Virus record (IMG/VR): IMGVR_UViG_3300005096_000055
Location: 1-58,902 of that record
From: a virus
Taxonomy: Duplodnaviria; Caudoviricetes
DNA: 58,902 nucleotides
Strand: one strand, 5' to 3'
The translations under genes were made by a program, and so were the position numbers. Shown piece after piece: positions 1 to 18,615 of the stretch; position 1 is the stretch's first letter, and every line of letters begins with the position of its first letter. The notes below the pieces were generated by a model that saw only the letters and a list, made by a program, of their open reading frames with translations, was not told the DNA's origin and made no database searches.

Positions 1-91
1 ATCTTGCCTGACTGTACGGCTGATGCGAGCTCGCCTGCCACATTCACCGGGAATTTGCAGGTGATCTTGGCGGAGTGGCCCTTCTTGTCTG
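1..91. repeat. Terminal direct repeat (assembly circularisation overlap), copy 1
   Basis: 1-91 identical to 58812-58902; a minus-strand ORF reads through the junction. Confidence 0.95.
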
Positions 92-179
92 AGGCCTGGG
101 TGTAGAACATGCTCTTGCTGTATCCGGTTGGGGCGGTCGTTTCCCACCGAGAGGCAGCTTTGTCCTGTGCAGTTGTCAT
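1..179 (-). CDS. 5' part of ribbon-helix-helix DNA-binding protein spanning the circular junction
   Basis: ATG at 179 after GAAGGGG RBS; MTTAQDKAASRWE...KITCKFPVNVAGELAS is in frame with ORF 58472-58858. Confidence 0.75.
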   Translation of the reverse strand, partial: MTTAQDKAASRWETTAPTGYSKSMFYTQASDKKGHSAKITCKFPVNVAGELASAVQSGK

Positions 180-383
180 CGATTCCCCTTCGCGTTTGGA
201 CTACGTATTCAACCACCTTCGCGTGCCTACCACAACCACCTTCGCACCCCACCACCAATCGCAGGTTATCGTCCACACACATCCATGATCCGTAGACCAA
301 AACCCGCATATATCTTCACCACAATTTCCCGCTTGGCTGGATATCATATATCCAGGCATTGGGGTGACCTATGGTATTGGGGT

Positions 384-453
384 TGATATCAGTACATCGG
401 GGAAGTGGTCCACACTGTTTTTGGTAGGTACCACTTCCCGGATGTTGATATCA
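384..453. repeat. Imperfect inverted repeat flanked by TGATATCA palindromes (operator/origin candidate)
   Basis: tgatatca-gtacatcggggaagtggt...accacttcccggatgt-tgatatca in the gap between divergent genes. Confidence 0.5.
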
Positions 454-555
454 GATATCCAGGAAAGGGTGCTAAGGTAGTAGTAGCGTAGGTGCACGCG
501 GGTTCGACGCCCGAACTCATTCTACAGTGTTCTGTCAAGGTGTCAAGGAGGCATT

Positions 556-870
556 ATGGAAGGCTACGAGGGGATCCCAGGGTTCGTGATCGAGGGTGAT
601 GACGGCAAGGTCATCGTTGGGAACCCCGGTCAGCAAGCAGGCGGCCGGCGCGTGTATAGGGATGGTACGCAGCAGGATCGAAGTGAAGTGAAGAGGAAGG
701 GTGGAACGCATGACTATCTCTTGCGAGCCCCCAAGGGTCTTTGGGTTGCTTTCAAGCGGAAGTGCGACAACGAGGGCCTGACGATACGAGGGGCGCTGCT
801 GTTCCTTGTCAAGGACTGGACCATGGGCAAGATCGAGATTGAGGACCTTGAAACCCGTATGAACCTGTGA
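556..870 (+). CDS. Hypothetical protein
   Basis: 104 aa, AAGGAGG RBS, followed by a hairpin. Confidence 0.7.
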   Translation: MEGYEGIPGFVIEGDDGKVIVGNPGQQAGGRRVYRDGTQQDRSEVKRKGGTHDYLLRAPKGLWVAFKRKCDNEGLTIRGALLFLVKDWTMGKIEIEDLETRMNL

Positions 871-943
871 GAAGGTGGTAGCGGCGGAAAGGGAGTTCCC
901 GGTAAGAGGTTCGGTCGGTTGCGGCACCGGACCCACGGCGCGA

Positions 944-989
944 AGAAACCCCCGAGCTCGCGTAAGTGATGCGTAGCTCGGGGGTTTCG
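944..989. terminator. Hairpin between convergent genes, probable terminator
   Basis: gaaacccccgagct...agctcgggggtttc. Confidence 0.65.
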
Positions 990-1005
990 TATTGGGTGTT
1001 GCTGC

Positions 1006-1248
1006 CTACAGCATCTTCGGCCGATGCCTGATGGCCCACTTTCGAATCGTCTTCCAGTACCAGAGCGGCTGTGGTCGGCCACCTGGCATGTCTAGGTCGG
1101 GTGGAGGGAACCTGGACGATTCACGCTTCCTCCACGAATGTACGGTGTTGAGCTGAACGCCGAAGTACTCAGCGATCATTGGCATGTTCAGTACGTCTGA
1201 GTCCTTGTACTTGGACTTCGAGGGGTTGATGCCAGGTATCACAGGCAT
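1006..1248 (-). CDS. AlpA/excisionase-like winged-HTH protein
   Basis: LNMPMIAEYFGVQLNTVHSWRKR..FPPPD..PLWYWKTIRKW; start taken at MPVIPG. Confidence 0.7.
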   Translation of the reverse strand: MPVIPGINPSKSKYKDSDVLNMPMIAEYFGVQLNTVHSWRKRESSRFPPPDLDMPGGRPQPLWYWKTIRKWAIRHRPKML

Positions 1249-1472
1249 ATGCGCCTCTCGAAGTTTGCCCACACGTTGTCGAGCCACCACTGTCTTTGGG
1301 TGACCATCACTCCGTGCTCGAGCGACCTCTCCCATTGGATCTCCCAATAGTCGAAGCCCTGCCCAAGGCTCTCGAGGTACTCGTCACGCTCCCAATCGTG
1401 GATCTGGCCTTCGAACATCTTCTCGACCATCTTCTCGATGACGGCTTCCTCGTTTGCGTCTCGTTCGCTCAT
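1239..1472 (-). CDS. Hypothetical protein
   Basis: 77 aa with AGAAAGGGGTGAG RBS. Confidence 0.7.
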   Translation of the reverse strand: MSERDANEEAVIEKMVEKMFEGQIHDWERDEYLESLGQGFDYWEIQWERSLEHGVMVTQRQWWLDNVWANFERRICL

Positions 1473-1655
1473 TTCTCACCCCTTTCTGGTTACGAATCAC
1501 ACCTTTGTAATTCTTGGACTAGTAATACACACACGGATGTGGTTGAATCCACAGTGAGCATGTGATTACCCCTTCATGTTCGGTCGGATCGAGTGGGGGA
1601 GCCATTGAGGGTGCGATGAACCTCTGGCTCCCCCCTCGACTCTTCTCGACTCTCC

Positions 1656-1880
1656 TCAGTCGTTGATGACGAATCCGATCAATCGAACCTCCTCATCACC
1701 TTCGATGTTCGGGATCGAGTCTGCTATGAGCTCCTCGATCTTGGGGAACGGGTCCGTGCAACTCCCGGCTGCTGAATACAGCTTGTTCGACCACCTCTTG
1801 GGTATCTCGAACTCGAGGTGCAACACGGACACGCTTGGGAAGTCTGGCTTCCCTTTCGTTGGTGGCAAGAGCCCACTCAA
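1656..1880 (-). CDS. Hypothetical protein
   Basis: 4-nt overlap with upstream ORF. Confidence 0.6.
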   Translation of the reverse strand: MSGLLPPTKGKPDFPSVSVLHLEFEIPKRWSNKLYSAAGSCTDPFPKIEELIADSIPNIEGDEEVRLIGFVIND

Positions 1881-2101
1881 AGAAGACCCTCACGGATCTC
1901 GTTATCTGCGAGCTTGTCAGTATCGATTGGCGGAAGCCTCAGTGCTATTGCACCAAGGAACCGCGCAACCATTGCTGCTTCTATGAGGTTGTCAGCTTCA
2001 TAGACGCCCAACGTAGGCCCGTCAACATTGATCTCATATGAGGTTTTATCCTCGTCTGATACCGAGTCAACGATGACGCTTATCACGTACTTCGTTGCCA
2101 T
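1877..2101 (-). CDS. Hypothetical protein
   Basis: AAAGGGGTGAG RBS before MATKYV. Confidence 0.7.
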   Translation of the reverse strand: MATKYVISVIVDSVSDEDKTSYEINVDGPTLGVYEADNLIEAAMVARFLGAIALRLPPIDTDKLADNEIREGLL

Positions 2102-2263
2102 TCTCACCCCTTTCACGTACGGTATCTCCGCACTCTTGGAGGATCATCGGACTGTTGTGTTGTCAATCAGCCTGTTACCAGACCCAACTTGTTGTAGTTG
2201 GTTCCGATGATCCCCCAAGGCTACGGAGAACGTAGCCCGTGGATTTGTGGTCCACTGTTGTTG

Positions 2264-2659
2264 TCAGCCTTCCCACCCGATTCGGTGGACTACACGGTCG
2301 TTGAGGTAGACCTTCGTCTTGTCAAGGTACCTTGAGAGAGCTTCGTTCACCTCATCTTGGGTGAAGTCAGCATTGCCGTCCTTCCACAACACGAAGACGT
2401 TTGCACCTTGGTGCGGTTGGACGGTGACACTCTCGACCTCAGTTCCAACCATCTTGATGTCGATGGTTGCCTTCAACGTCCATTCACTCGGCGCTTCTTC
2501 GGGACTTCGGATCTCGAGCCCAACGTCAGTGATGACCTGAGCTACTTCCTCTATGGTCCCTGCATCCCACTCGATCCCGTCAAGGATTCCGTGGATGCGC
2601 TCGATGGCTCTTGCATAGTCCAAGGCGGATCCCAAGGACGTATCTTCTGCTTCTGCCAT
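2264..2659 (-). CDS. Hypothetical protein
   Basis: AAAGGGGTAAG RBS before MAEAED. Confidence 0.75.
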   Translation of the reverse strand: MAEAEDTSLGSALDYARAIERIHGILDGIEWDAGTIEEVAQVITDVGLEIRSPEEAPSEWTLKATIDIKMVGTEVESVTVQPHQGANVFVLWKDGNADFTQDEVNEALSRYLDKTKVYLNDRVVHRIGWEG

Positions 2660-2758
2660 TTGCTTACCCCTTTCGTTCTGGTAACGCTTGTCGCTACCCC
2701 ACAACAAACCTACCCGAATGGATAGGTTTGTTGGTGGCTAGGTACAAGCTCTCGCTCG

Positions 2759-2968
2759 TTACAGGTGCAGCACCTTCCCTGCAACCTTCTTGCCGATCAC
2801 GATGAACTCGCTTTCGGGTCCAGGTGGCATTGGAGATGCGTACCCGCAATCGTCGCACTGGAGTTTCTCGATCCTCTCGATGGCGCCGAAGGCCGTCAGA
2901 ACCACGAGCTCACTGAGGAACCCAAGTTCTTCTGCCTTGGCGTAATCGATCGTGTAGAGATCATTCAT
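2759..2968 (-). CDS. Hypothetical protein
   Basis: 69 aa, overlaps upstream ORF end. Confidence 0.6.
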   Translation of the reverse strand: MNDLYTIDYAKAEELGFLSELVVLTAFGAIERIEKLQCDDCGYASPMPPGPESEFIVIGKKVAGKVLHL

Positions 2969-3293
2969 GGGCGTTCGCTATTACTTCGAGTATCGAAGCG
3001 TTGCAGCGAAGCTCGCCGTCTTTGGCGTAGGTTCGTGCTCGCGCTCGGTACTCTGGATCGAGCATCACCACGAACTTCGAACGCTCTTTGCCCACGATGA
3101 CACCCTGCATTCCTACAAGGTACTTCGGGCGGACGTTTGCGAGTCGCACGATCGTGCCTGGCTTGAGGGAAAGCGCTAGTCGGTCCGTGAGGACCCCCTG
3201 TCGCTTCTTCAGTGCCGTGTAGATCGTGTCGAAGTCATCGTCAACCGCTCCGTTGATGATGGCATCGTAGACCTGCTGTGCATTTGCACTCAT
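2961..3293 (-). CDS. Hypothetical protein, possible KOW/SH3-like fold
   Basis: LKPGTIVRL..RPKYLVGMQGVIVG..FVVML; conserved RBS. Confidence 0.7.
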   Translation of the reverse strand: MSANAQQVYDAIINGAVDDDFDTIYTALKKRQGVLTDRLALSLKPGTIVRLANVRPKYLVGMQGVIVGKERSKFVVMLDPEYRARARTYAKDGELRCNASILEVIANAHE

Positions 3294-3384
3294 TTGCTTA
3301 CCCCTTTCTGGTAGCTCGTTGCTACCCCACGACTCTCGAGGGGTTCTCGAGAGTCGGTGGCTAGTTACGAGCCTGTTTGGCTAG

Positions 3385-3678
3385 TTACGAGCGGCCTGTT
3401 GGAACCGCCGGCGAGATGATCCGAGCCTTCCACCTCTTGTGGCGGAACTCAGCTACCTCTTGCATGGATGGTTCGTTGATGCTCCAGGACAACTGCGCCC
3501 TTTCGGTATCTCCGTTGAGCTCGATGCCACATGATGGGCACCGTGCCCATGCATAGAAGCCTTCGGAGATCTCAAGTTCATATTCGCCAGGTGCCACCAT
3601 ATGGGTGGTGCCTTCTACGAAGCTGTACTCGTAGCAGTTCTCGCAGATCTGGTACATGCCTTGGATTCCCTTAGGCAT
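3385..3678 (-). CDS. Zn-ribbon protein
   Basis: CENC...CPSCG; start taken at MPKGIQ. Confidence 0.65.
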   Translation of the reverse strand: MPKGIQGMYQICENCYEYSFVEGTTHMVAPGEYELEISEGFYAWARCPSCGIELNGDTERAQLSWSINEPSMQEVAEFRHKRWKARIISPAVPTGRS

Positions 3679-3925
3679 TGTCAAGCCAATCGAGCCAGCT
3701 CTGGAAGAACTTTTCGACTGCCTCGATTGCCATGTCCTCTCGCACCTTGTCGCGACCCCACGAGTACTCTCCCGTGTCTTCGCGGTCAGGTTGCCAGATG
3801 TTTTCGTCAGTCTCGACGAACATCCACGGCGCTTCTGAGAAGTCCACCTGTGGTTCATCGACGAGTTCTCCAGTTTCCGTGTCGATCGACACGGCTACCG
3901 GTAGGTACACGACTACTTTCGCCAT
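3671..3925 (-). CDS. Hypothetical acidic protein
   Basis: Conserved RBS before MAKVVV. Confidence 0.75.
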   Translation of the reverse strand: MAKVVVYLPVAVSIDTETGELVDEPQVDFSEAPWMFVETDENIWQPDREDTGEYSWGRDKVREDMAIEAVEKFFQSWLDWLDNA

Positions 3926-3990
3926 GTTGCTTACCCCTTTTCTAGTAGCTGTCGCTACTCCCCGAGGTTCTGTGGAACCCCGAGGGCTAG

Positions 3991-4191
3991 TTACAGCTCT
4001 GCGAGCAGCTCGTGATACATGTCGAGAGCACACGCTGCGCAAAGGCGCATGGTTCGAGCCGTGTAGCCTTCACCTGCTTTTGCAGTCAGCTTCATCCTTG
4101 CATAGCCTTTGGGACATCCATCGCAATGGTTGTCACCGGTAGGCCATACCCTGGGGACTCCATGAGAGTTGTAATCAACCTCAACGCTCAT
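3991..4191 (-). CDS. Small Zn-finger protein
   Basis: CDGC...CAAC. Confidence 0.65.
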   Translation of the reverse strand: MSVEVDYNSHGVPRVWPTGDNHCDGCPKGYARMKLTAKAGEGYTARTMRLCAACALDMYHELLAEL

Positions 4192-4787
4192 TCGCTGCTC
4201 CCCCTCTCATGTATCCACACAGCCGCCTGGAAGTCCCTAGGAGCCATTTCGAACAGCTCTGCAACCTCTCGGTAGCAACTTGCCACCATGGCGTACACAC
4301 CGACCCTCTGGAGGTCGTGAATATCCGCCCAGCGCTTCCCAGTAGCCGCCCGCAACGCCCAGCGGTCTATCACGACTGCATTGGGGTTGCCGGCGATCGC
4401 CCTGTAGAACTCTCGTATCTTGTGCGAGGGCCCGTCGGGCTCAGGAAAGGTGGAGATGATCGAGCCACCTGCAAGGATCCTCTTGACTCGTGCAACGGCA
4501 TGCGAGAACCCTCGAGGGTTTCCAGCAAGTGCCATTTCGGCCATTCGGATGTTGTTAGACCATGATTGGTTTGGACTCATTGCAGCAATCACGCCTGCGG
4601 CTTGATGCTTTGTGACTCCGTACTTTCGCGCCAACCTTCTTGCAAGGTTCTCGGCTCCGGTGTACCAACCCATCCCTGCAATCACCTCGTAGGTTGTCAA
4701 GGAGTTCCCGATATTGGTCAGGTTCTCAATGATCCTTGAGCGATGCTCGGGAAGGTTGTGGACACCTCTTGGTATCGTCGCCTTCAT
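4188..4787 (-). CDS. Phage protein with HhH-glycosylase-like motifs (DUF7178-like)
   Basis: GWY..AAGVIAAMSPNQSW..KIREFYRAI..VVIDRW..FQAAVW; family from recall. Confidence 0.55.
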   Translation of the reverse strand: MKATIPRGVHNLPEHRSRIIENLTNIGNSLTTYEVIAGMGWYTGAENLARRLARKYGVTKHQAAGVIAAMSPNQSWSNNIRMAEMALAGNPRGFSHAVARVKRILAGGSIISTFPEPDGPSHKIREFYRAIAGNPNAVVIDRWALRAATGKRWADIHDLQRVGVYAMVASCYREVAELFEMAPRDFQAAVWIHERGSSE

Positions 4788-4865
4788 TCTTACCCCTTTT
4801 CTGATGTCCTCGTAGACACCGCCCACCCTTGGAGCTTCCCCCAAGGGTGATCGCTGGTTACCAGC

Positions 4866-5459
4866 TCATACGTGGCAGTCGAGGCTAACCACGATTGCAT
4901 CAGGCCGAGCTACGCGAAGGTCATTCCATGCCTTCTCGTAACCCTCTGCTTTGTCCTCCTCGGTCTTGCCGTCCTCATCAGGAATTGAGGAACCGAACCA
5001 ACCCATGCGGGCTCGTTCGATCCATTCTCCGTCTGGGTTGACGAATGCAGTCATCGTGTAGTCGCTATGGACTTCTGATAACCGACAGCGGTTTCGCCCA
5101 AGTGACGTGTAGCGATCATCTGAAGGCCACACGGAACTCTCACCAGTCCCATCACAGCCATTGCAGCCGTTGCAACCGTCGTACCAGGCTTGCCCGAACT
5201 CCTCGAGTCCTCGTGGACGTTCGCCGGTACCGTTGCAAATGCGACAGAGCTCCTTGAGATCGAGCCAATCCAGCCCGCGGATACTGCCATCCCATCTGCC
5301 TCCAACAACCCACCAATCCCATCGCGAACCTTCGCTGAACGCTTCATCGTTCTCGTCGAAGGGCGCCATCAGTCTGGTGACCTCTTCCAGGACATCCTTC
5401 TTCTGTGAGAGATTGTCGAACCTCTCTGGTAGCACAACGGCTACCTTGAAGTGTGTCAT
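4866..5459 (-). CDS. Phage protein with DnaJ-type Zn-finger motifs
   Basis: RWDWWVVGGRW; CRICNGTG and CNGCDGTG. Confidence 0.7.
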   Translation of the reverse strand: MTHFKVAVVLPERFDNLSQKKDVLEEVTRLMAPFDENDEAFSEGSRWDWWVVGGRWDGSIRGLDWLDLKELCRICNGTGERPRGLEEFGQAWYDGCNGCNGCDGTGESSVWPSDDRYTSLGRNRCRLSEVHSDYTMTAFVNPDGEWIERARMGWFGSSIPDEDGKTEEDKAEGYEKAWNDLRVARPDAIVVSLDCHV

Positions 5460-5526
5460 GTCTCTTACCCCTTTCTCGTGTGGTCCATCCACACTCCGCG
5501 AAGTTCCTTGGAACTCCACGGGCTGT

Positions 5527-5709
5527 TTACGAACCTTTGCTCCTGCGTTCCTTGAGGATCTCCTTGGCTATCTCGAGCCTCTCTTCATCCTCTTTGGCGT
5601 TCAGCCACGGCAACGTCTCAAGCGCTTTCACCATGTTGGAAAGCTCCCAGCTCGGCCGGCGACTCCACATCTTCTTGTGATAGTCGCGCGACATTGACTG
5701 AGCTACCAT
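5527..5709 (-). CDS. Hypothetical protein
   Basis: Fills gap; stop overlaps repeat element. Confidence 0.6.
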   Translation of the reverse strand: MVAQSMSRDYHKKMWSRRPSWELSNMVKALETLPWLNAKEDEERLEIAKEILKERRSKGS

Positions 5710-6008
5710 GAGGTATCGGCCATCCGATACGACTGGTGTATGTCGTCGTAGAGCCGTCGTGCATCAGACCATGCATATTCACCGTAGAAGGTCTTGACCC
5801 TCTTTGCGGACTTCTGCGAGATCAGATGGGTTGCATAGACCCTGTGCATTCCATCGGTGTATTCGTAACCACCAACGGTGTCGCGCATGTCGGCCACTTC
5901 ATGTACGAGCTCGATTGCATGATCCTCTGTGTCGCCTCCGACCCAGAACACCATGCTCTTAACCACTCGCCATGAACCAACCTTCGCATATCTCTGCGAT
6001 GCTCTCAT
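5703..6008 (-). CDS. Hypothetical protein
   Basis: Conserved RBS. Confidence 0.75.
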   Translation of the reverse strand: MRASQRYAKVGSWRVVKSMVFWVGGDTEDHAIELVHEVADMRDTVGGYEYTDGMHRVYATHLISQKSAKRVKTFYGEYAWSDARRLYDDIHQSYRMADTSW

Positions 6009-6103
6009 GTTCTCTTACCCCTTTCTTGGTACCTTGTCAGTACCCCACCACCTTCGACCTGAGTGCGTCGAAAGTGGGTGGCTAGTGACAAGCTAGTTCG
6101 TGC

Positions 6104-6652
6104 CTAGTTCGTGATTGGGCGGTCCTTGATTTGATTCCGCGGATCATCGAGGCTCCTGAAGAACTCCTCGATGGGTTCTGCATAGGCGCTGTTGGTGATC
6201 GCCAGCTTCCTTTCGTACTCCACTTCGGCTTCATTGAGTTCCCGGAAGGCTCTTCCGGTTCCACCAGGATCGTACCTAGACGTGAACCTCCGCACCTTCG
6301 GGAGCCCCTGTACGTCCCTCTCGGTGCGATTGACAACGTAGAACCCGTTATCGCCTGGGTCGGTTCGCACCAACTGCAGCGATACCTCGAGGTTGTGTTT
6401 GTCCATCACGCCTAGTGGGACGTTCACGATTCCAACCGAGAGTGTTTCGAACCTCTCGCGGCCATCGAAGAACTCACAGACGATTTGCGCGAACCTCGAA
6501 GCTTCGTACTCCTGGTCGGCGCGAACCTTCCGCCTATCCAGCTCCTTCAGGAAGGCATAGACCGATTCCGGTCCCCCATTCCAGTGAAGGTATATGGCTG
6601 GTGAGAACCTCATCTCGCCATTTGTGAAGATCACGTTGGCTCGATTTCCCAT
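6104..6652 (-). CDS. Hypothetical phage protein
   Basis: MGNRANVIF..IYLHWNGGPES; conserved RBS. Confidence 0.8.
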   Translation of the reverse strand: MGNRANVIFTNGEMRFSPAIYLHWNGGPESVYAFLKELDRRKVRADQEYEASRFAQIVCEFFDGRERFETLSVGIVNVPLGVMDKHNLEVSLQLVRTDPGDNGFYVVNRTERDVQGLPKVRRFTSRYDPGGTGRAFRELNEAEVEYERKLAITNSAYAEPIEEFFRSLDDPRNQIKDRPITN

Positions 6653-6741
6653 TTGCTTACCCCTTTCCGTAGGTGTCCATCACCTACACGCCCTTGCAGG
6701 AACTACACAGCTCCTGCAAGGTCGTCTAGTTGTCGAACGGT

Positions 6742-7566
6742 TCAGAACAGCTTCATGTGAAGCCGGCCGAACTTGACGAGACCCTCGAGGGTTTCCACAA
6801 CACCTTTGACAGTGTTCGGGTTTTCAAAACCACCTTCGCTCTTGACGGTGATCACGGAACCTTCATCGTCCTCATCGGAACCATCGTAGATCCCAATCAT
6901 GGCTCCCTCAAAGTCTGTGAGCCACACGTATAGGTCCTCGTAGCCGTAGCCTTCCTGCCTGTTGAAGTGAACGGCTAGGGCTTGCAGCCCACCACCTAGC
7001 TCTTCAACGAAGGTCTTCGTGTTCACAGGTAGCTTCCCTCGAGCCCTCGACTCTTCAATGGCTTTCGCCAACTCGCCGAAGTGCTTTGAGCGATGGCTAC
7101 GCGCAAGTTCACGACCCTTTGCATCGCGTTCCTCCCTTGCAACTTTCTCCACTGCTAGATGGAGGTTGAAGGGATCCTCGCCAACTTCAAGGGCGATTCT
7201 CGCAGCCCATTCAGTGTCGTAGTAGAAACCCATTGAGGGTTCCGTAGACAGTCCTGAGTAGGCTGTGAAGTACTTCGTGTACGCCGCTTCGCCTCTCCAG
7301 AGCGCTGCGAGTTTTCGGTAGATATGGCTGTTGCCGGACACGCGTGTTTCGCTTGTCCTATGCATTGCCGCAATCTCACCTGTGGAAAGCGGAATTGCTT
7401 CGTCGAGGTTCACGAAAGCCATGTAGGAGCTCGGATGAGCCCTATCCTCGGCCTTCTTGGAAACCTCATGGATCACTTCCACGATTGCACGACCGTCTGC
7501 AGAGAAATAGAGGGTTTTGAACCCCAAATCAGTCTGCATGTCTTTGTGCATACCTCTCGCTTTCAT
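6742..7566 (-). CDS. Hypothetical protein
   Basis: 274 aa; conserved RBS. Confidence 0.8.
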   Translation of the reverse strand: MKARGMHKDMQTDLGFKTLYFSADGRAIVEVIHEVSKKAEDRAHPSSYMAFVNLDEAIPLSTGEIAAMHRTSETRVSGNSHIYRKLAALWRGEAAYTKYFTAYSGLSTEPSMGFYYDTEWAARIALEVGEDPFNLHLAVEKVAREERDAKGRELARSHRSKHFGELAKAIEESRARGKLPVNTKTFVEELGGGLQALAVHFNRQEGYGYEDLYVWLTDFEGAMIGIYDGSDEDDEGSVITVKSEGGFENPNTVKGVVETLEGLVKFGRLHMKLF

Positions 7567-7634
7567 CTCTTACCCCTTTCCGTAGCGGTTGTCGCTACTC
7601 CACAGGGACCTCGTTTGAAGTCCCTGCGGGCTAG

Positions 7635-7844
7635 TTACAACCTGTCTCGTTTGGCCTGGCGACGTAGCTCATCTAAGTCGTCAATCCAGATGCGCTTTCG
7701 GTAACCCGTCCTGTCCGTGTAGACCTTTACGTAAAGGTCGGGATCGATCAGGAGGTTCTCGTGGATGTGTGAGCGAACTTTCTCAATTTCTGATAGCAGC
7801 TCGCTCACAGTTCCCTCGGAGCTTTCGTAAACCACTTCGTACAT
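7635..7844 (-). CDS. Hypothetical protein
   Basis: 69 aa in operon. Confidence 0.65.
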   Translation of the reverse strand: MYEVVYESSEGTVSELLSEIEKVRSHIHENLLIDPDLYVKVYTDRTGYRKRIWIDDLDELRRQAKRDRL

Positions 7845-7847
7845 GGC

Positions 7848-8102
7848 TTACACCTTCTCCGCAAACATGTTCCCGGAAGCCAGTCGCGGCTTCACATAGT
7901 CCTCGAAGGTCCAGCCGGCATCGTCGTAACCCGCTATGGTCACCACGCTCTTGCCGTCACCTTCCGTGTAGCCTCCGGTGACTATTGCATTCCTTGGTAG
8001 GTATGCTGCAACCCTCTTCTTGGAGATGCCGTTGCCGCGAACCTGCGCTATCCAGCTCGAGTTTCGCGAAGACCCATGACCCTTTGTCTGTTGGTCATTC
8101 AT
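7848..8102 (-). CDS. Hypothetical protein
   Basis: Conserved RBS. Confidence 0.75.
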   Translation of the reverse strand: MNDQQTKGHGSSRNSSWIAQVRGNGISKKRVAAYLPRNAIVTGGYTEGDGKSVVTIAGYDDAGWTFEDYVKPRLASGNMFAEKV

Positions 8103-8201
8103 CTACTTACCCCTTTCTCATCTAGTGCAGTTTGCCTACACCCCACCGGACTCGAGCGCTTTCGCCCAAGTCCGAGTGGCTGTTTGCAACCTCTCAGTCG
8201 C

Positions 8202-8762
8202 TCAGTCGATCCGTGAATGCCCGTATACCTTCACCTTGGTTTCGCCCAGCTCCTCGAGCCCTTCGCGCAAGCTCTTGGCCATTGCATAGGCTGCAGCTTC
8301 CTTTCGCGCCATGCTTTGGGAGCTTCTACCAACCGGTAGGTTGATTCGCATCCCTCCACCGTAGGTAGATGATGCACCGAGGTTCTTCTTAGCCCAATGG
8401 GCGAAAGAAGAGTTCCCAGGTCGCGTAGTCAGCCATGCGAAGCCACAGACCCCCTCAGGCACGTTCCAGCTTTGCACAACCTCGCTCGAGTCATCGAACA
8501 GGGTTGCATGTTGCTGAACCACCATTGGGGTTGGTTTCGCATCCTCGAAGGCCTTGATGCCAACCTCGGTCGCTTTCGCCCAGAGTTTGGCATAGGCTTC
8601 GTAGCGCTTTGCGCGCTTTGCGGCTTGCTCGTCGCGGTTCGCAATGAACTTGTCGCGAGCTTCTGTGGCGTGTTGGACGCAGTATTTCGACTTCGATGCA
8701 GAGTACGATGACTTTGCAGCAGTCGTACATGCTTCCCACGCGCATTGTCCGTAGGTTTCCAT
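8202..8762 (-). CDS. Hypothetical phage protein with N-terminal Cys/His finger
   Basis: CAWEAC..YCVQH; GVCGFAW; conserved RBS. Confidence 0.8.
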   Translation of the reverse strand: METYGQCAWEACTTAAKSSYSASKSKYCVQHATEARDKFIANRDEQAAKRAKRYEAYAKLWAKATEVGIKAFEDAKPTPMVVQQHATLFDDSSEVVQSWNVPEGVCGFAWLTTRPGNSSFAHWAKKNLGASSTYGGGMRINLPVGRSSQSMARKEAAAYAMAKSLREGLEELGETKVKVYGHSRID

Positions 8763-8844
8763 CGTTCTTACCCCTTCTCGTAAAGTCGTTCGACCCTACG
8801 CGTAGGTTCCCCGATCTCTCGAGGAACCCTCGCCTAGTTTCGCA

Positions 8845-9123
8845 CTAGTGGTTTCGGCCTCCGCATATGCTGCATCCAGCCTCTTTGCGGTCCTTTGTGT
8901 CTAGGTGATCCTGTAGCTCGTCGATGAGGGTTTGCACATCCTCATCAGTCAAGAGCAGGCCTTTGTAGGAACTCGTGTCGACCAGTATCAGCCGCGTAAA
9001 CTCAGCGGCAGAGGTTTCCAAGACGTTCACCCACGCTGTGGGAGAGGTTTTGGATCCCTCTAGCTGGATCGTGGTGGTTCTCAAGTGGCCTTCGAAGCTC
9101 ACTTCTACCTTCGCCATTGTCAT
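8845..9123 (-). CDS. Hypothetical protein
   Basis: GAGAAGGGGT RBS; C-terminal CSICGGRNH. Confidence 0.7.
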   Translation of the reverse strand: MTMAKVEVSFEGHLRTTTIQLEGSKTSPTAWVNVLETSAAEFTRLILVDTSSYKGLLLTDEDVQTLIDELQDHLDTKDRKEAGCSICGGRNH

Positions 9124-9204
9124 ACCCCTTCTCGCAGTCTCGTTTGAGCCTACGCGCCCTTCCATGAATCCTTGTGGACCCATGGAAGGTCGTCTAGGTT
9201 CACC

Positions 9205-9543
9205 CTAGCGATAGTCGCTTTGGTCGGCGGTTCTTGTGATCTTGACGTCGCTTGCAGTAACTTCCACGCGACTTGTGCGGCTATCGCCACCAGTTGCCCA
9301 GAACCGTCTTTGCACGCTCCCGGTAACCCATATGGCTGCTCCGCGAAGCCCACCAGTTTGGATAACCTCAACGAGCTCGTCATCAGGATCCCACAACACT
9401 ACGGGGATCACATCGATCCTCCTACGCGGTTCGCTGGACCTTACGGTTACCAGCAACCTCACAAGTTGTGAGCCGGATTCGAAGAACTTCAGCTCCGGTT
9501 CCGCGGCTAGTTTCCCAGCCAGTACGGTTAGATTCAAGTCCAT
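9205..9543 (-). CDS. ssb: Single-stranded DNA-binding protein (short, no acidic tail)
   Basis: LNLTVLAGKLAAEPELKFFESG..IPVVLW..G..IWVTGSVQRRFW..SRVEVTA OB-fold pattern. Confidence 0.9.
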   Translation of the reverse strand: MDLNLTVLAGKLAAEPELKFFESGSQLVRLLVTVRSSEPRRRIDVIPVVLWDPDDELVEVIQTGGLRGAAIWVTGSVQRRFWATGGDSRTSRVEVTASDVKITRTADQSDYR

Positions 9544-9785
9544 TCGCTTACCCCTTCTCGCAAGTCACTTCGTACTCACGCGCCCTTGCACGAACCCTAT
9601 GAAGTTCGTGCAAGGTCGCCTGGGAACGAGACTAGATTCGTCAATCCCAAGTTATTCAGTTGTCAGCTTTCGCCACTATCGCTTTCGCATTTGCTTACCC
9701 CTTTCGTATCTCTTTAGAGCCTACGCGCCTCCCCACCAGGCCTACGCACCTTCGCGTAGCCCCGATGGGGAGTCGTCTAGGTTCG

Positions 9786-9902
9786 CTAGAATCCCATGTA
9801 GCTCTGTGCAACGTCCTCGACGTTTGACCAAAGCTCGATCATCCCGGCGCCTAGGGAGGACCCATAGACGCTGAGCACGAACCCCAGCAACGTACCAATC
9901 AC
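9786..9902 (-). CDS. Small hydrophobic peptide (38 aa)
   Basis: Read manually: MIGTLLGFVLSVYGSSLGAGMIELWSNVEDVAQSYMGF; GTGA overlap with upstream stop. Confidence 0.55.
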   Translation of the reverse strand: MIGTLLGFVLSVYGSSLGAGMIELWSNVEDVAQSYMGF

Positions 9903-10201
9903 GTTCGCACCAAGTACTCGTGCGCCGGCGAGACCTTTGCAAAGTACTCACCAACGTCTGTACCTATTGCAAGCTCGGCCTCGATGACCCCACCTACAAC
10001 AGAGTCGCTTGTGGGGTTGGCAAGGCCGTTTGCGCTCTGTAGGTACTTTCGCGCGACTCTCAGGTCCGTAAAGAACCTGCCATCTGCGCGCGTCCATATC
10101 GGCTGTTTGGAACCATCGGGTAGGTATTCCCAATCCTGTATCAGGATCACGAAGACGTTTCCTGCGAGTTGCCCCACAGCCCAGAGCCTTAGGGAAACCA
10201 T
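9899..10201 (-). CDS. Hypothetical protein
   Basis: TAATG coupling with upstream gene. Confidence 0.7.
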   Translation of the reverse strand: MVSLRLWAVGQLAGNVFVILIQDWEYLPDGSKQPIWTRADGRFFTDLRVARKYLQSANGLANPTSDSVVGGVIEAELAIGTDVGEYFAKVSPAHEYLVRT

Positions 10202-10449
10202 TACAGCCTCCCAGCAGCTTCATGGGTTTCAGCAGCCTTGGCGGCTTGCTCGAACATCATGGAGAGCTCAAGCAGCTTTTCACGGCTTGCCTGGAACTCC
10301 ACACGAGTGCTTCCACCCTTGGCGAATGCCTCCACGGTCACGGTAGCTTCAACGCTACCCCTGACGATCACGTAGGCTTCCACCAACGTCTCGCCATCCA
10401 TGAAGGTCAATTCAACCTCTGGTGGGTATGCCATGAATATCGGCATCAT
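10201..10449 (-). CDS. Hypothetical protein
   Basis: Conserved RBS. Confidence 0.75.
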   Translation of the reverse strand: MMPIFMAYPPEVELTFMDGETLVEAYVIVRGSVEATVTVEAFAKGGSTRVEFQASREKLLELSMMFEQAAKAAETHEAAGRL

Positions 10450-10563
10450 TCTCTTACCCCTTCCGGTTCTTGAGAACCTCTCAAGATCCCCGCAACCCTC
10501 GAGGATCTTTCCTCAAGGATTCTGGGGACCCCATGAACCCTCTCGAGTCCACGGGGAAGTTCC

Positions 10564-10689
10564 CTACAAGTTTGCCGCGACCTTCGCTAGTTCCCCTGAG
10601 GCCCATTGGGCCATTTGAAGAACTAGGAACGTACCTATGGCGATTGCCACTAGGTATTTCGCGATTGCTTCGAGCGCACATCGGCTCAT
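10564..10689 (-). CDS. Small membrane peptide (41 aa)
   Basis: Read manually: MSRCALEAIAKYLVAIAIGTFLVLQMAQWASGELAKVAANL after AAAGGGGTAAG. Confidence 0.7.
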   Translation of the reverse strand: MSRCALEAIAKYLVAIAIGTFLVLQMAQWASGELAKVAANL

Positions 10690-10802
10690 TGCTTACCCCT
10701 TTCGTTGGTCGATAGGTTGGTACCTACCCCTAGCCCTACCATGAATCGGTAGAGCTAGGGCTAGGTGCAAGAGCTCTTGTGTGAACCCTTGCACCCTATC
10801 GC

Positions 10803-11330
10803 TTACCCCTTAAAGGTGACAGTTGCCAATTCGTCACCGAGTCCTTGGCTTGAGAGGTTGGCGACCGTATCGGTAGCTATCACCTCTGCTGTCCATCCTT
10901 CATCGGTCGCGACATCGGAATTGGCCAACACACCAGCGAACGCAACAGCATTCGCGAATGAGTCGAACCCCTGCAACAAGGTCCCTCCATACTCGTGGTC
11001 GTTTGAGTCCACGTAGTAATTGACCATTTCCGCTTTCACATGGTACGCGAACCCACTACGGCCGTCAGTAATCCTGACGAACGCCGTAGCATTGTCGGTC
11101 GCATCCGTTGCGTTCGCCTTGGTTGCCGCTTCCCTCACGAGGTTGCGGTAGCCCTTGCGCCGTTTTTCGTTGGCCGCTGCTTTGTGGGCGCGACACAACG
11201 TAGCCTTCCCGACTACTTCGACGTTGCAAGACTCATCAGCGCACACACGAGTAGTTGAGGCTACGGTAGCCTTACTCGCTGCATCGCGTTCGGTCGCTGC
11301 ACTGTCAATCGCTTCTAGGTTGATAGGCAT
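10803..11330 (-). CDS. First early gene, hypothetical protein with Cys/His finger
   Basis: CADESC..LCRAH; conserved RBS. Confidence 0.75.
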   Translation of the reverse strand: MPINLEAIDSAATERDAASKATVASTTRVCADESCNVEVVGKATLCRAHKAAANEKRRKGYRNLVREAATKANATDATDNATAFVRITDGRSGFAYHVKAEMVNYYVDSNDHEYGGTLLQGFDSFANAVAFAGVLANSDVATDEGWTAEVIATDTVANLSSQGLGDELATVTFKG

Positions 11331-12017
11331 TACTTACCCCTTCCGGCACCTTGCCTCAAGCACTTCTCGAGGACTTACATGTACCCTTCGACCTACCAAC
11401 CTATGCCCTAGAAAGGGCTATCGGTCGATAGGTTCAAGGGTACCTATCGACACCGAACACGCTAGACGCGCTCAGTGCCGATAGGTACGGGGTAAGGGGT
11501 AGGTCACTATGTAGACTGACGATACCTACTTGCCATCATCCACATGGACTTACGGCGTCTAACCTCGTATCGTTGTAAATGCCCTAGCGCTATCCCGATT
11601 CAAGACTTGCACCTATCACAAGGTGCCTAGTGCCATAGCAGGGACTTACCCATCACTGTCGATAGTTCATCACGGCGGCATCACCCCTCTAACGATATCC
11701 ACCTAGGTCGATATCGGCAATTCCGTTCCCATCATGGCGTAGTTGACACTAGGCCATGGGGGTATCGGTATCGGGGTACTTGAGTCGAACACGCTAGGAC
11801 CGATAGTCAGTATCGGTAGGGCTCTCATCAGTCAGGTTGTCAAGGTGCAGTGCACCCCTCGAGCGTAGGTACTTGATACGACTCCTGCGATTCACGCAAG
11901 CCCACTGAAGGGCTAGGCCGTGAGTCATCCGATGAGCGATAGTGCCTAGGCTCTATCCATCGGTCGGCTTTCCGTATCGACTTAGGCTATCAAGGTGCCT
12001 GTACCGCTAGGCGGCAC
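11331..12017 (-). ncRNA. ~690-nt structured 5' leader of the early transcript
   Basis: No ORF >=60 aa; many hairpins; 9-bp complementarity between 11991-11999 and 11345-11353. Confidence 0.55.
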
Positions 12018-12023
12018 AAGGGC

Positions 12024-12053
12024 AGTATGGCACAGATCTAGCGATATGGTCAA
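12024..12053 (-). promoter_or_regulatory. Sigma70-type early promoter
   Basis: TTGACC-18 nt-CATACT with extended -10 TG. Confidence 0.7.
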
Positions 12054-12624
12054 TACCCATAGTCAAGAATTCCCTACAACCCTTGCTATGACTGACTTAC
12101 CAACCAACTGCAATCACCCTAGAGCGCCACAATGGCCCTAAATCGGGGGGTTCAGCGTATGTGCCTAGTGGTTGGCTACAACCTCGCCACGAAGCGCTTA
12201 AATCGCCGTGTATGGCGTGTGTGCCAGGTGCTATCAACTAGGGGTAAGCGAGGTTAGTTACCTTTCATCACTATAACTGGGCTCTATTTGGGCTACTTGA
12301 CCTTAACTGCTGTTATTGGAAGGACCTGGTAAATACCGAACATATGTTCGACTCACCCTTACCCCTACCACCATAGGGGGAACTATTCCTTAGTCCCTTA
12401 CTCAACTACTAATCAATAGATCCATAGTTGAGTAGTGAGCAACTAAGGAATTGACTTAACACTATGGCGATAGGGGTAACCCCCGTTACCAGTTTGTATA
12501 GTGATGTGTGAAGCCCCGCTCACAAATTTGACCCCCAATTTTAACCCCCTTGATATCCGTCCATCCAGCCCCACGAATCAGGCAAATGTATATATCCGTC
12601 CATCCGTTACCTCGAAACTGGGGG

Positions 12625-12652
12625 TTGTCACCAATCACCAGGCCCATACAAT
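12625..12652 (+). promoter_or_regulatory. Sigma70-type promoter for 12687 gene and tRNA cluster
   Basis: TTGTCA-16 nt-TACAAT. Confidence 0.6.
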
Positions 12653-12686
12653 GGTGAAGGGAAACCGCATCTACCAAGGAGGATGA

Positions 12687-13067
12687 ATGGACCGACCGAA
12701 CAGACTATCCGAGATCACCGTTGGGGTGGGTGACTTGATCGATACCGTTGTCAAGAATCGCGCCAAGCACCTACAGGACTACAGCGTTGCTCTGGAGAGA
12801 TTCCATGAAGCTGCCAAGGACGCGCTCTATGGGCGCATCACCCAGGTAGTGAATGGGACCATCAAGGACCTCAGGTTCGACCTACCAGTGCCCGAGAACC
12901 ATGTCGACGACTACGACCGCGCGATCAAGATGCTCCAGATGACTCGCGACGCCGGCCAGGACACAGTGGTGCTGAGCGAAAGCGAGCAGGAGTCCTATGT
13001 GATGGACAATTGGGGCTGGAAGCGCAAGTTCACCGAGACCTCGACGTTCTATGTGGGCAAGGGGTAG
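12687..13067 (+). CDS. Hypothetical phage protein
   Basis: 126 aa, AAGGAGG RBS. Confidence 0.8.
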   Translation: MDRPNRLSEITVGVGDLIDTVVKNRAKHLQDYSVALERFHEAAKDALYGRITQVVNGTIKDLRFDLPVPENHVDDYDRAIKMLQMTRDAGQDTVVLSESEQESYVMDNWGWKRKFTETSTFYVGKG

Positions 13068-13243
13068 CGAGAATTGGGGGTTGTGGGGCTCGTAATGGGT
13101 TGATACGATCATGATCCCAGTGGCGGCAGTTAAGCTGGTCGCCAGTGGGACACCCCACTCGGGGTTGGGAATGGGCGCAGTGGCAAGGCGTGCTAGCGAA
13201 CCCTGTCAACACAGTCCGCTCCCTTCGCTCGAGTGGGGTATAC

Positions 13244-13312
13244 GCCGGGGAGGCCATGGGGCCAAGCAGCTTCCAAACCTGTATGGGTGGGGTTCGATTC
13301 CTCGCTCCGGCG
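13244..13312 (+). tRNA. tRNA-Trp(CCA), atypical (Gly-TCC reading possible)
   Basis: 7-bp acceptor gccgggg/ctccggc, GGTTCGATTCC T arm, loop TTCCAAA, G73; C:C mismatch in anticodon stem, short D arm. Confidence 0.6.
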
Positions 13313-13394
13313 CGACCCATCCCCATGGAGGGTGGAGAGGCATCGTGGATTCCGACGGCCGGTCCACACGTACAGATGCACTAGGCGGTCATAA

Positions 13395-13467
13395 CAGTGT
13401 GTAGCTCAGTTGGGAGAGCGCTCGGTTTGGAGCCGAGGGGTCGTAGGTTCAAGTCCTACCACACTGA
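13395..13467 (+). tRNA. tRNA-Pro(TGG)
   Basis: Canonical cloverleaf; ctcgg-TTTGGAG-ccgag. Confidence 0.92.
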
Positions 13468-13564
13468 CGGGGCCTGCCGAGGGAAAATAACTCGGGTGGC
13501 GAGGCGAAAGCGCGTAAGTAACTGAGCTAACAGCGGCGGAAGGATCCGCCAGGTCCCAGATTTT

Positions 13565-13636
13565 GAAGCCATAGCTGAGGGGCATAGCAGCGGACTTTTA
13601 ATCCGCAGTACGTAGGTTCGACTCCTACTGGCTTCA
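13565..13636 (+). tRNA. tRNA-Lys(TTT)
   Basis: Cloverleaf; gcgga-CTTTTAA-tccgc. Confidence 0.92.
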
Positions 13637-13710
13637 CGGTAGGGGGTGCGCGCCGTTTAAGCTGGCGGGTTCATAACCGTTGTCGGAAGGCGGCCCCCGT
13701 ACCAACGCCC

Positions 13711-13782
13711 ACCAGGCTCTTCTAACTGGCAAGATGCTAGGTCCTGACCCTGGCGATCGAGGTTCGAGTCCTTGGCCCGGTG
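13711..13782 (+). tRNA. tRNA-Gln(CTG), C at position 33
   Basis: ctagg-TCCTGAC-cctgg, GGTTCGAGTCC T arm, one acceptor mismatch. Confidence 0.75.
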
Positions 13783-13787
13783 CTCAT

Positions 13788-13861
13788 TCCGGGGTCGGCT
13801 AATGGCAAGCCGCGGGTCCTTGGAGCCCGCTATCAAGGTTCGAACCCTTGCCCCGGAGCCA
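13788..13861 (+). tRNA. tRNA-Gln(TTG), C at position 33, encoded CCA
   Basis: tccgggg/ccccgga acceptor, cgggt-CCTTGGA-gcccg, 3' GCCA. Confidence 0.85.
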
Positions 13862-13881
13862 ACTACGAAGGAATAGCACAC

Positions 13882-14193
13882 ATGACATTCAACTACCTCA
13901 TCGTTGATGGCTATGAACGCGTTGCAAGCCACACGGAACATGAGTGGGGGAGATACAACAGCCACGTCATCCAGACGAACAGTGAGTCAGCATTCAAGGG
14001 CATCTGCTGCATCGACAGGAAGGCAGATGTGGTCGCGACGGTGTGTGATGCAGCACTTACCGGGGTGTCATGGAGCATGCTGAGGGATTATTGGCTACCA
14101 GTGAAGCGCATCGAGGTCGTGTTCGCCAACTGTGGATGCCTACTGGATGCTGCTGAGGCCTTCGCTGATCTCGATGGTGACTGTGGCAGGTAA
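13882..14193 (+). CDS. Hypothetical protein
   Basis: GAAGGA RBS before MTFNYL. Confidence 0.55.
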   Translation: MTFNYLIVDGYERVASHTEHEWGRYNSHVIQTNSESAFKGICCIDRKADVVATVCDAALTGVSWSMLRDYWLPVKRIEVVFANCGCLLDAAEAFADLDGDCGR

Positions 14194-14421
14194 GCCACCG
14201 ACGAGGTAGCGGCTGTTGTTGAGATCAGTGCAGTAGACGGTGAGTGATGAAGTATCCTGGTGGAGATCGATCGTGGCAACACGATCTACGTCAGTGTGGC
14301 GGTTGATGAGCTCGAGGAGCTTGGTGCGGTTCTCGTCGGTGAGGAACCTCATGTGGGAGTGAGAGATGAGGCCCTTGTTCAGCCGGCCGTTTTCATCCTC
14401 GAGGGGTCGATCGCTTGTCAA
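14140..14421 (-). CDS. Hypothetical protein
   Basis: Last of a chain of coupled ORFs. Confidence 0.55.
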   Translation of the reverse strand: MTSDRPLEDENGRLNKGLISHSHMRFLTDENRTKLLELINRHTDVDRVATIDLHQDTSSLTVYCTDLNNSRYLVGGLPATVTIEISEGLSSIQ

Positions 14422-14672
14422 GTCACTGCCTTCTCTGCTCGCTGTGCAAAGTACCTTAGCGCCGATTTGAACTGGTTGGTAGTGATGTCGGGTGGGAGTA
14501 GCTTTTGGGCGGCTTCGACGATGCGATCGTAGTCGTATTGGCCGACTTCATCAAAGCTCTCCCATCCCTGGGTCTCAGTCCAGTCCTCGAATGCCGACCA
14601 CAGCAGTTGGGTTGCCATGGTGTTGAGGTTCCTTTCGAGTTCACGTTCTTCCATCATCATCTCTTCACCCAA
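14418..14672 (-). CDS. Hypothetical protein
   Basis: Acidic 84-aa coupled ORF. Confidence 0.65.
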   Translation of the reverse strand: MGEEMMMEERELERNLNTMATQLLWSAFEDWTETQGWESFDEVGQYDYDRIVEAAQKLLPPDITTNQFKSALRYFAQRAEKAVT

Positions 14673-18474: not shown

Positions 18475-18615
18475 GGAATCTTCCCTTCTTCACAAGCGCC
18501 CAGGCGCCTTTCTTATGGCCGACCGGATTCCATGCAGCACCACACTCACCACAGATCCAATCGAAGTCCTTGAGGCCCAACCTCCAGCCTCTCACAAGGA
18601 AATGGCGATGGTCGC

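Follow-up and report, generated by a model that had tools for sequence, protein, structure and literature searches.

In phage T7, the RNase III sites R0.3-R1.3, of which R1.1 is the model substrate, are interrupted hairpins of about two helical turns between the cistrons of a long early transcript. The early transcripts of SPO1 and SP82 are also cut by RNase III. RNase III substrates typically span two helical turns, possibly of stacked short helices; internal loops confine cleavage to one strand or phosphodiester, and the products keep protective hairpins (PMC1540722, in part). Stem-loops at the 5' terminus stabilise bacterial mRNA, and the degradosomes of actinobacteria include the 5'-end-dependent RNases E and J (PMC7509114, in part). 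A different type of repeat is the start-associated sequence (SAS) of cluster K mycobacteriophages, a 13-bp asymmetric block that occurs in 11-19 copies in the non-structural half of the genome, 3-7 nt before start codons and with long spacers (PMC3203893, in part). Its extended form (ESAS) has 17-bp inverted repeats that are conserved in sequence, and their departures, according to the same report, do not support RNA pairing. In T4-type phages, early promoters are combined with stem-loops in composite units, the PeSLs (Arbiol et al. 2010, PMC2839356; Comeau et al. 2014, PMC4122927; both in part). Here we describe 14 intergenic elements of one anatomy on the minus strand, at 2.66-10.77 kb of the IMG/VR virus record IMGVR_UViG_3300005096_000055. 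This record, analysed over its whole length of 58,902 bp, is referred to as the window. Our tentative reading, held at somewhat less than even confidence, is that the elements are processing sites that turn into a 5' cap hairpin ahead of a strong ribosome-binding site.

The elements share the motif AAGGGGTAAG. Allowing at most one mismatch, we found 29 matches against 1.47 expected, a number reached by none of 100 shuffles. The 16 exact copies are confined to the minus strand, at 2663-11342, and each precedes an ATG by 3-6 nt. Two more spacers, those ahead of the motifs at 11341 and 10461, are likewise structured but lie outside the common plan. The initial annotation of this DNA, made from the letters alone, had counted about 15 elements, a fair estimate given the 14 of common anatomy and the two atypical spacers, and the example that it quoted was located at 3291-3373 on the minus strand.

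Sixteen copies were scored, 14 from the window and two from a metagenomic relative, contig L124. From the 5' end, an element begins with one strand of helix P1a (variable, 5-7 nt) and two unpaired letters, followed by the 5' strand of helix P1b (three letters with a final A: CUA, ACA, CCA or CAA), an invariant G and the apical hairpin P2, which has 11-20 bp, never fewer than 11, and a tetraloop in 11/16 copies. After P2 come G-N-G-U, the partners of P1b, the partners of P1a and the 3' arm of a second hairpin, H2. H2 has 6-9 bp and begins at the invariant G-U; it is followed by 1-8 letters, GAAAGGGGTAAG, 3-6 letters and the ATG. The invariant letters are A-G in the 5' half and G-N-G-U in the 3' half. 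The part that is both conserved and unpaired is a G opposite (N)G, with an A-U pair beneath it and a C-G pair on top. The initial annotation had described the whole as a YAG/NGTR internal loop; the conserved G opposite (N)G stands, whereas most of the proposed loop is a covarying 3-bp helix (CUA/UAG, ACA/UGU, CAA/UUG). In all 16 copies the element forms a single interrupted hairpin with a total helix of 20-29 bp, and the predicted folds contain the G/(N)G loop and a 2x2 loop between helices. The apical stem is free in sequence, as had been noted before, although paralogy between some copies is evident, as in the CCTTGCA... stems of E9555 and E6664.

Analysis of the basal stem revealed covariation between its two strands. 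The copies were anchored on the invariant A and U, pairs were counted in register and partners were permuted among copies. The 5' flank pairs with the 3' flank in register in 16/16 copies, with three paired, two unpaired and five paired positions or a close variant of this pattern. Over the stem part k=3-9, own partners gave 4.88 mean pairs against 3.58 for swapped partners, and over k=0-2 the values were 2.81 and 2.20; 0/20000 permutations reached the observed sum in either part. In a MAFFT alignment of 10 copies, made without fitting to structure, 85.2% of the P1 and P2 cells were paired against a shuffle mean of 65.2%, and none of 500 shuffles was as high. Pairing dropped to 35-51% of cells when the partners were slid by 1-3 columns. 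Both sides had changed in 14 of the 19 aligned pairs, which bears out the covariation proposed in the initial annotation. In 16/16 copies the 3' segment has H2 as its minimum-energy fold, which starts at -1 or 0 of the invariant G (z against shuffles -1.5 to -5.3, mean -3.9). Its five aligned pairs are 81.6% paired, with a compensatory change in three.

A covariance model, a check that the initial annotation had proposed, was built from 10 copies (model R1). It gave full-length matches at E<=6e-6 on the gene strand only, 13 in the window, where they are confined to 2.66-10.77 kb, and two in L124. Five copies outside its seed were recovered, at E=1e-9 to 6e-6. A scan with a structural descriptor gave 13 matches on the minus strand against 2 on the plus strand, compared with 0-2 per shuffle in 20 shuffles; this descriptor was made by hand from the elements, and only the clustering and strand bias of its matches count as evidence. 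Two earlier, looser descriptors, with about 50 matches per strand in shuffles, were dropped.

Folding energies favour the sense over the antisense strand in 15/16 copies (mean -36.1 against -29.5 kcal/mol), and the helical positions hold 33 G.T against 11 A.C. This stability of the sense strand and the excess of G.T, together with the gene-matched orientation and the fixed distance to the start codon, point to elements that fold as mRNA and not to double-stranded DNA sites. We therefore consider it very unlikely that they act at the level of DNA or transcription, as operators or promoters for a DNA-binding protein or as factor-independent terminators or attenuators without a U tract. The presence of inverted repeats ahead of some non-structural genes is reminiscent of ESAS (PMC3203893, in part), and CTAG-containing repeats also occur in the 1.3-kb non-coding region upstream of the early genes. 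However, the element arms covary and are free in sequence, the reverse of the ESAS arms, and both the strand asymmetry and the G.T pairs speak against double-stranded sites. No sigma-70-like promoter was detected at any element (3 in 14 kb against 6.5 expected, all elsewhere), nor any U-tract terminator (7 terminator-like sites in 1-14000, none of them an element). A search of the genome for sigma-70 region 2 or a phage sigma factor found neither.

Our folding analyses predict two states. As long as the RNA includes its 5' flank, 15/16 copies prefer the long hairpin, by 0.2-8.4 kcal/mol; when this flank is blocked or removed, the RNA takes up a form with P2 and H2. In H2, the P1b 3' strand forms part of the stem and the P1a 3' strand makes up the loop. 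H2 thus reuses the basal 3' strands, so the long hairpin and H2 exclude each other, and the mutually exclusive second hairpin of the initial annotation was recovered in every copy. The predicted accessibility of the Shine-Dalgarno sequence averages 0.65 in the full RNA, 0.71 when the 5' flank is blocked and 0.70 once the RNA is cut; on the change of state it falls in 4/14 copies. Occlusion of the Shine-Dalgarno sequence as the purpose of the switch was rejected, as accessibility showed no systematic change.

These two states could also serve translation alone. The elements would then be SAS-type signals, in which the GAAAGGGGTAAG block and the two-state fold couple translation to the upstream neighbour: a ribosome at the upstream stop codon would melt the basal stem, and H2 would bring stop and start close together or present the Shine-Dalgarno sequence for re-initiation. 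We regard this as a fairly unlikely explanation, although several observations agree with it. The motif lies 3-6 nt ahead of the ATG in every element, its exact form is restricted to the early block, and its placing agrees with that of the SAS of cluster K mycobacteriophages (PMC3203893, in part). The upstream stop codon is 5-13 nt from the anchor in 8/14 window copies and in both L124 copies, and blocking of the 5' flank is predicted to yield H2. However, in the other 6/14 window copies the stop codon is 17-57 nt from the anchor, beyond the reach of a terminating ribosome, which therefore cannot be the general trigger that opens the stem. The nearly constant accessibility of the Shine-Dalgarno sequence also argues against this explanation, as does the occurrence of AAGGGG-type sites without a hairpin at other genes of the phage.

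Under cleavage and refolding, the reading that we favour, the elements would be cis-acting RNA structures within one long leftward early transcript. The transcribed spacer would fold into the 20-29 bp interrupted hairpin made up of P1a, P1b, the G/(N)G loop and P2, and a host RNase III-type, double-strand-specific endonuclease would cut at or beside the conserved loop. Through this cut the basal stem would lose its 5' strand. The released 3' strand would then fold into H2, a flush stem-loop at the new mRNA 5' end, with the strong, invariant Shine-Dalgarno block GAAAGGGGTAAG and the ATG following 1-8 nt on. In that way the early genes would obtain separate, stabilised and well-translated mRNAs, and the approximately 15 near-identical motif ends in one orientation would also offer recombination joints for the gain, loss and replacement of cassettes.

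The helix of 20-29 bp in 16/16 copies corresponds to the about two turns expected of an RNase III substrate, and the predicted internal loops between the helices correspond to those of RNase III target sites. For the E. coli enzyme, further rules are defined that concern inhibitory base pairs in the proximal and distal boxes. If the conserved loop were cut on its 3' side, the downstream RNA would have the base of H2 at its 5' end. A host enzyme would be needed because a search of the genome found no phage-encoded RNase III. From these features and the lack of sigma-70-like promoters and U-tract terminators at the elements, we infer that the block would be transcribed as a single unit and cleaved by such an enzyme, and that H2 would be protective.

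Several points weigh against this reading. A search of sequencing runs found no RNA run that carries the sequence. To our knowledge, RNase III does not require a conserved sequence, and it leaves the loop letters unexplained; the invariance of A-G and G-N-G-U may instead indicate another, sequence-specific factor. In 8/14 window copies the upstream stop codon shares letters with, or directly adjoins, the 5' strand of the basal stem (offset <=13 nt), so translating ribosomes would compete with the cleavable helix. The covariation set consists of paralogues of one genome and two copies of one relative, and their shared descent inflates the cell counts given above. R1 misses one canonical copy, E9129. 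When 29 IMG/VR loci (487,045 bases) with a helicase 25-47% identical to that of the window were scanned, R1 gave 0 matches, and the descriptor gave 15 scattered matches on both strands, near its background of about 0.65 per 59-kb strand.

The loop letters also allow another explanation, in which a sequence-specific factor from phage or host, either an RNA-binding protein or an endoribonuclease but not RNase III, recognises the elements by reading the A-G / G-N-G-U loop on a helix. These letters are invariant in 16/16 copies while all flanking helices vary. CTAG is rare genome-wide (91 sites against 224 expected from base composition), yet 52/91 sites fall in the first 12.3 kb, many of them within elements, and a distant relative (L135) has two CTAG-flanked hairpins, one of them also flanked by GTAG. 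Most early proteins have no family assignment and could include such a factor. However, no candidate protein was identified, the conserved letters could descend from a duplicated ancestral element, and RNase III fits the helix length without added assumptions. On balance we consider a specific factor of this kind unlikely.

The initial annotation had also suggested self-cleavage. Apart from that suggestion, only the conserved loop letters favour ribozymes, and we consider them extremely improbable. At gathering score, Rfam 15 returned tRNAs alone, and at E<=1 over 1-13000 it gave one match at chance level (E=0.41). Known small ribozymes have junctions or pseudoknots, whereas the fold found here is a plain interrupted hairpin. 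The interpretation offered in the initial annotation thus holds in part: the elements are sense-strand, two-state structures of RNase III-substrate form, in a stretch without sigma-70-type promoters or U-tract terminators, and self-cleavage and single-stranded DNA sites found no support.

The closest of the described systems are the T7 sites, SAS and ESAS, and the PeSLs. The T7 sites and the elements are both interrupted hairpins of about two turns between the cistrons of a long early transcript, with an internal loop at the expected cut site and several related copies per genome, and in both the hairpin remains on the product as an end protector, a prediction in the case of the elements. Unlike the T7 sites, the elements have conserved loop letters, a covarying 3-bp helix and a second, exclusive hairpin. 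They also include a fixed ribosome-binding block, and they point to protection of the downstream 5' end where the T7 sites protect the upstream 3' end. Moreover, the virus is actinophage-like, and cleavage of the elements is a prediction. With SAS and ESAS the elements share a conserved, asymmetric Shine-Dalgarno block in many copies and a single orientation, placed ahead of some of the non-structural genes, with long upstream spacers and, in many cases, an inverted repeat directly before the block. The motif itself differs: the elements have GAAAGGGGTAAG, and the cluster K consensus 5'-GGGATAGGAGCCC (<=2 deviations) does not describe it. For the bistable H2, the parts of PMC3203893 on SAS and ESAS offer no counterpart. 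A literature search found nothing on intergenic stem-loops of actinophages, and phage mRNA processing was absent among the matches listed for RNase III and mycobacteriophage.

Like PeSLs, the elements are repeated composite units flanking small early genes, which are non-essential in T4-type phages, and close relatives differ by insertions, deletions and replacements that stop at these units (PMC2839356 and PMC4122927, both in part; two relatives for the elements). As described in those parts, PeSLs combine sigma-70 promoters with working terminators, whereas the elements have neither promoter hexamer nor U tract. Their strong stem-loops are not followed by a T run, and the unit is instead a bistable hairpin with a ribosome-binding site. 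By analogy, the T7 RNase III sites may serve as the working model, SAS as the genomic pattern and PeSLs as the evolutionary behaviour. The individual copies are listed in Table 1.

Table 1. Copies of the element and the two atypical motif-bearing spacers in the window.
Feature	Coordinates	Strand	Description	Search result
E10700	10687..10773	minus	basal ACCUA/UAGGU, 13-bp apical hairpin, H2, GAAAGGGGTAAG, ATG of 41-aa open reading frame	non-seed R1 match, E=6.4e-8
E9702	9688..9789	minus	type B, CCUAGACGA...GCGCGUAGG, apical stem extended to 20 bp	non-seed R1 match, E=6e-6
E9555	9541..9632	minus	degenerate type B, CCA/UGA, precedes SSB gene 9205-9543	non-seed R1 match, E=3.2e-6
E9129	9115..9206	minus	type B, motif variant AAGGGGTATG, ATG at 9117	descriptor match; missed by R1
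E8775	8760..8846	minus	type B, CUAGGCGA...ACGCGUAGG	non-seed R1 match, E=1.3e-7
E8114	8100..8192	minus	ACA/UGU variant	
E7577	7564..7643	minus	type A, GGUUGU-AA-CUA-G...AG-UAG-CG-ACAACC	
E6664	6650..6738	minus	type B	non-seed R1 match, E=1.1e-9
E6022	6006..6094	minus	type A variant, CUUGUCA/UGACAAG, UAC in place of UAG	
E5472	5457..5535	minus	ACA/UGU variant; stop codon within basal stem	
E4797	4785..4866	minus	CCA/UGU variant; precedes DUF7178 gene	
E3938	3923..3999	minus	type A, AGCUGU/ACAGCU	
E3305	3291..3373	minus	type A, GCUCGU/ACGAGC	top R1 score, 86.1 bits
E2671	2657..2750	minus	type A, GCUUGU/ACAAGC	
Atypical spacer	11328..11445	minus	long hairpin, second hairpin, AAGGGGTAAG; ahead of first block gene 10803-11330	weak R1 match, motif end only, E=0.23
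Atypical spacer	10447..10575	minus	three hairpins in a row and the same motif AAGGGGTAAG	partial R1 match, E=7.6e-4

The motif doubles as a stop signal in one frame, and the copy at 10802-10811 holds the stop codon of gene 10803-11330 (AAG GGG TAA). An open reading frame (ORF) of 33 aa with a GTG start (10693-10794, minus strand) would cross E10700 and end in the next motif. E9702 and its motif precede only a 4-codon mini-ORF (MRKR; 9690-9676, minus strand), and the next element lies about 50 nt further on. This mini-ORF between E9702 and E9555 appears to be left over from a lost cassette.

The window comprises an entire siphovirus genome of 58.9 kb with a 91-bp terminal repeat. Terminase, portal, major head and tape-measure genes are located on the plus strand at 22.7-48.2 kb. 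Because its portal is about 25% identical to the portals of Thermobifida, Arthrobacter, Gordonia and Streptomyces phages, we classify the virus, by sequence comparison, as an actinophage-like siphovirus distant from any cultured phage. A megablast search of the region against 50,697 phage records gave zero matches. The elements belong to a long minus-strand run of small genes that extends leftwards from about 12.3 kb and in which family assignments are scarce, with the exceptions of SSB (9205-9543) and a DUF7178 protein (4188-4787).

Upstream of this block, 1.3 kb (11343-12686) have no convincing ORF. This stretch contains 14 CTAG sites with a mean spacing of about 45 nt, many TATCG/CGATAGG repeats, motif copies in inverted form (TTACCCCT / AGGGGTAA) and a weak promoter-like site at 12053-12024 on the minus strand, and it may be an early control region or an origin. 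Four tRNA genes (Pro-TGG, Lys-TTT, Gln-CTG and Gln-TTG; 13395-13861) are on the plus strand, opposite to the early genes, and three of the four are picked up by Rfam at gathering score. The genome also encodes an RtcB-type RNA ligase (20138-21778, minus strand) and a second RNA ligase domain protein (PF09414; 52347-53000, minus strand). The RtcB match is in two parts (residues 6-264 and 428-545), and this split suggests an insertion, for instance an intein. The terminase (22720-25236) is unusually long, at 838 aa.

Two relatives, L124 and a sequencing run designated X2, allowed the gene content of the block to be compared. L124 is a 1360-nt metagenome contig, the sole relative obtained from a single metagenome scan. 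It encodes a DUF7178 protein 65% identical to that of the window and carries the same motif and two canonical elements. A single unrelated ORF of 57 aa separates its g11-like gene (33% identity, E=1e-7) from the DUF7178 gene; the window has three genes at this place, each bracketed by elements. The L124 element at 692-765 has its best match in E5472 (71% over 70 nt), and its 3' half (GUGUC...GACAC, AAGAATG) resembles, by eye, that of E4797. Judged from these likenesses, it is what an exchange between two elements would leave.

Three runs of one study labelled hydrothermal vent metagenome, X1-X3, contain contigs of a relative about 90% identical, compared over window 1-15000. X2 was the only run in which long pieces were compared, by position alone. 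In an X2 contig, 786 other letters stand in for window 4800-5538, a stretch that extends from E5472, at its 5' edge, into the first letters of the motif that follows. A further X2 contig has 250 nt in place of the 599 nt of the window at 8694-9292, with E9129 kept. This shortening fits the loss of ORF 8845-9117 and E8775, from start codon to start codon, because the difference in length matches by arithmetic. E10700 is replaced or absent in X2 (joint 10689->10782), and a patch of divergence begins at the 5' edge of E6664 (6739). The comparison of gene order thus supports, for these two relatives, that gene gain, loss and replacement are bounded by elements, as the initial annotation had anticipated.

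This pattern does not show that recombination is the function under selection. As a primary role, the elements would be joints for cassette shuffling, either through homologous exchange as at the PeSLs of T4-type phages or as folded single-strand sites similar to attC of integrons. The differences from both relatives are cassette-sized and end at the edges of elements or motifs, and the L124 element is E5472-like in its 5' half and E4797-like in its 3' half. Short direct repeats of the upstream gene's end are present at E3305, as a 15-nt tandem copy of the element's 5' end at about 3375-3392, and at E6022, which a 9-nt direct repeat precedes. The 4-codon remnant between two elements and the precedent of the PeSLs (PMC2839356 and PMC4122927, both in part) also agree with such a role. 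However, mosaic joints at gene boundaries are common across phages, and the comparison rests on two relatives, one of them compared by position alone. Recombination also needs no precise bistable sense fold, no G.U pairs and no fixed distance to the start codon. The proposal of single-stranded DNA sites for site-specific recombination has no support, as no tyrosine recombinase was found: PF00589 had 0 matches in the genome, with a positive control in 14/14 genomes. Like attC, the elements are imperfect hairpins whose ends are conserved and whose centre is free, with a single copy per cassette and a common orientation. Unlike attC, they come with no detected integrase and no R/L box consensus, they lie 5' of the gene together with its ribosome-binding site, and they are bound to the transcript strand. 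The likeness to attC is formal only, and we judge a primary role in recombination quite unlikely.

Searches for further copies returned little. Among the matches listed for the exact motif with ATG in IMG/VR there were single, chance-like matches only, and the type-A pattern had 0 matches there. A search of IMG/VR with the protein encoded at 6742-7566 found no relatives, and the DUF7178 alignment found none in IMG/VR or genome_contigs. The portal search gave one 8.5-kb contig (L123) that does not include the early region. For the helicase (56195-58276), 342 homologues were found at E<=1e-20, the best being 90, 66, 64 and 63% identical and located on short metagenome contigs; eight homologues of 56-90% identity lie on contigs of 2.7-11.3 kb. 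Because the distant helicase relatives lack R1 matches, the exact element design appears confined to a narrow lineage, and the general habit may be wider. L135, with a helicase 39% identical, has its own start-associated block GAAAGGAAC in 9 copies, all on the gene strand (plus), and at 560-1100 CTAG precedes each of two paralogous hairpins, one of which is followed by GGTAGG with a matching basal stem. In L126, nine tandem small genes at 16750-18780 on the plus strand share an end block of about 25 nt (…ATCATCGAAGGGAGCGAGGAGTGA) with overlapping stop and start. This repeat of 9-10 copies was rejected as a set of hairpin elements, as it represents the conserved ends of the tandem small genes.

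The processing and cassette behaviours can be combined in one system, which we consider a rather doubtful but coherent possibility: an RNA-structured cassette system without integrase, in which each early gene would carry a bistable module. The module in its long form would be cut, or opened by ribosomes, at the A-G/G-N-G-U loop by a sequence-reading factor, perhaps not RNase III, its short form would cap the 5' end, and its module ends would be the joints of gene swaps. Since 2011, no function has been known for the start-associated repeats of actinobacteriophages. In the comparable repeat described here, the covariation is clear and both the sense strand and the alternative fold are defined, which makes an RNA role directly testable. 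If the elements are cut and then refold, they would be a compact natural way to split an operon into stable, well-translated mRNAs, with a design usable in high-GC Gram-positive hosts, and they would show regulatory repeats shaping the mosaic early regions of phages. If the cassette system without integrase is real, a single element would set mRNA boundaries, life span, translation start and evolutionary modularity.

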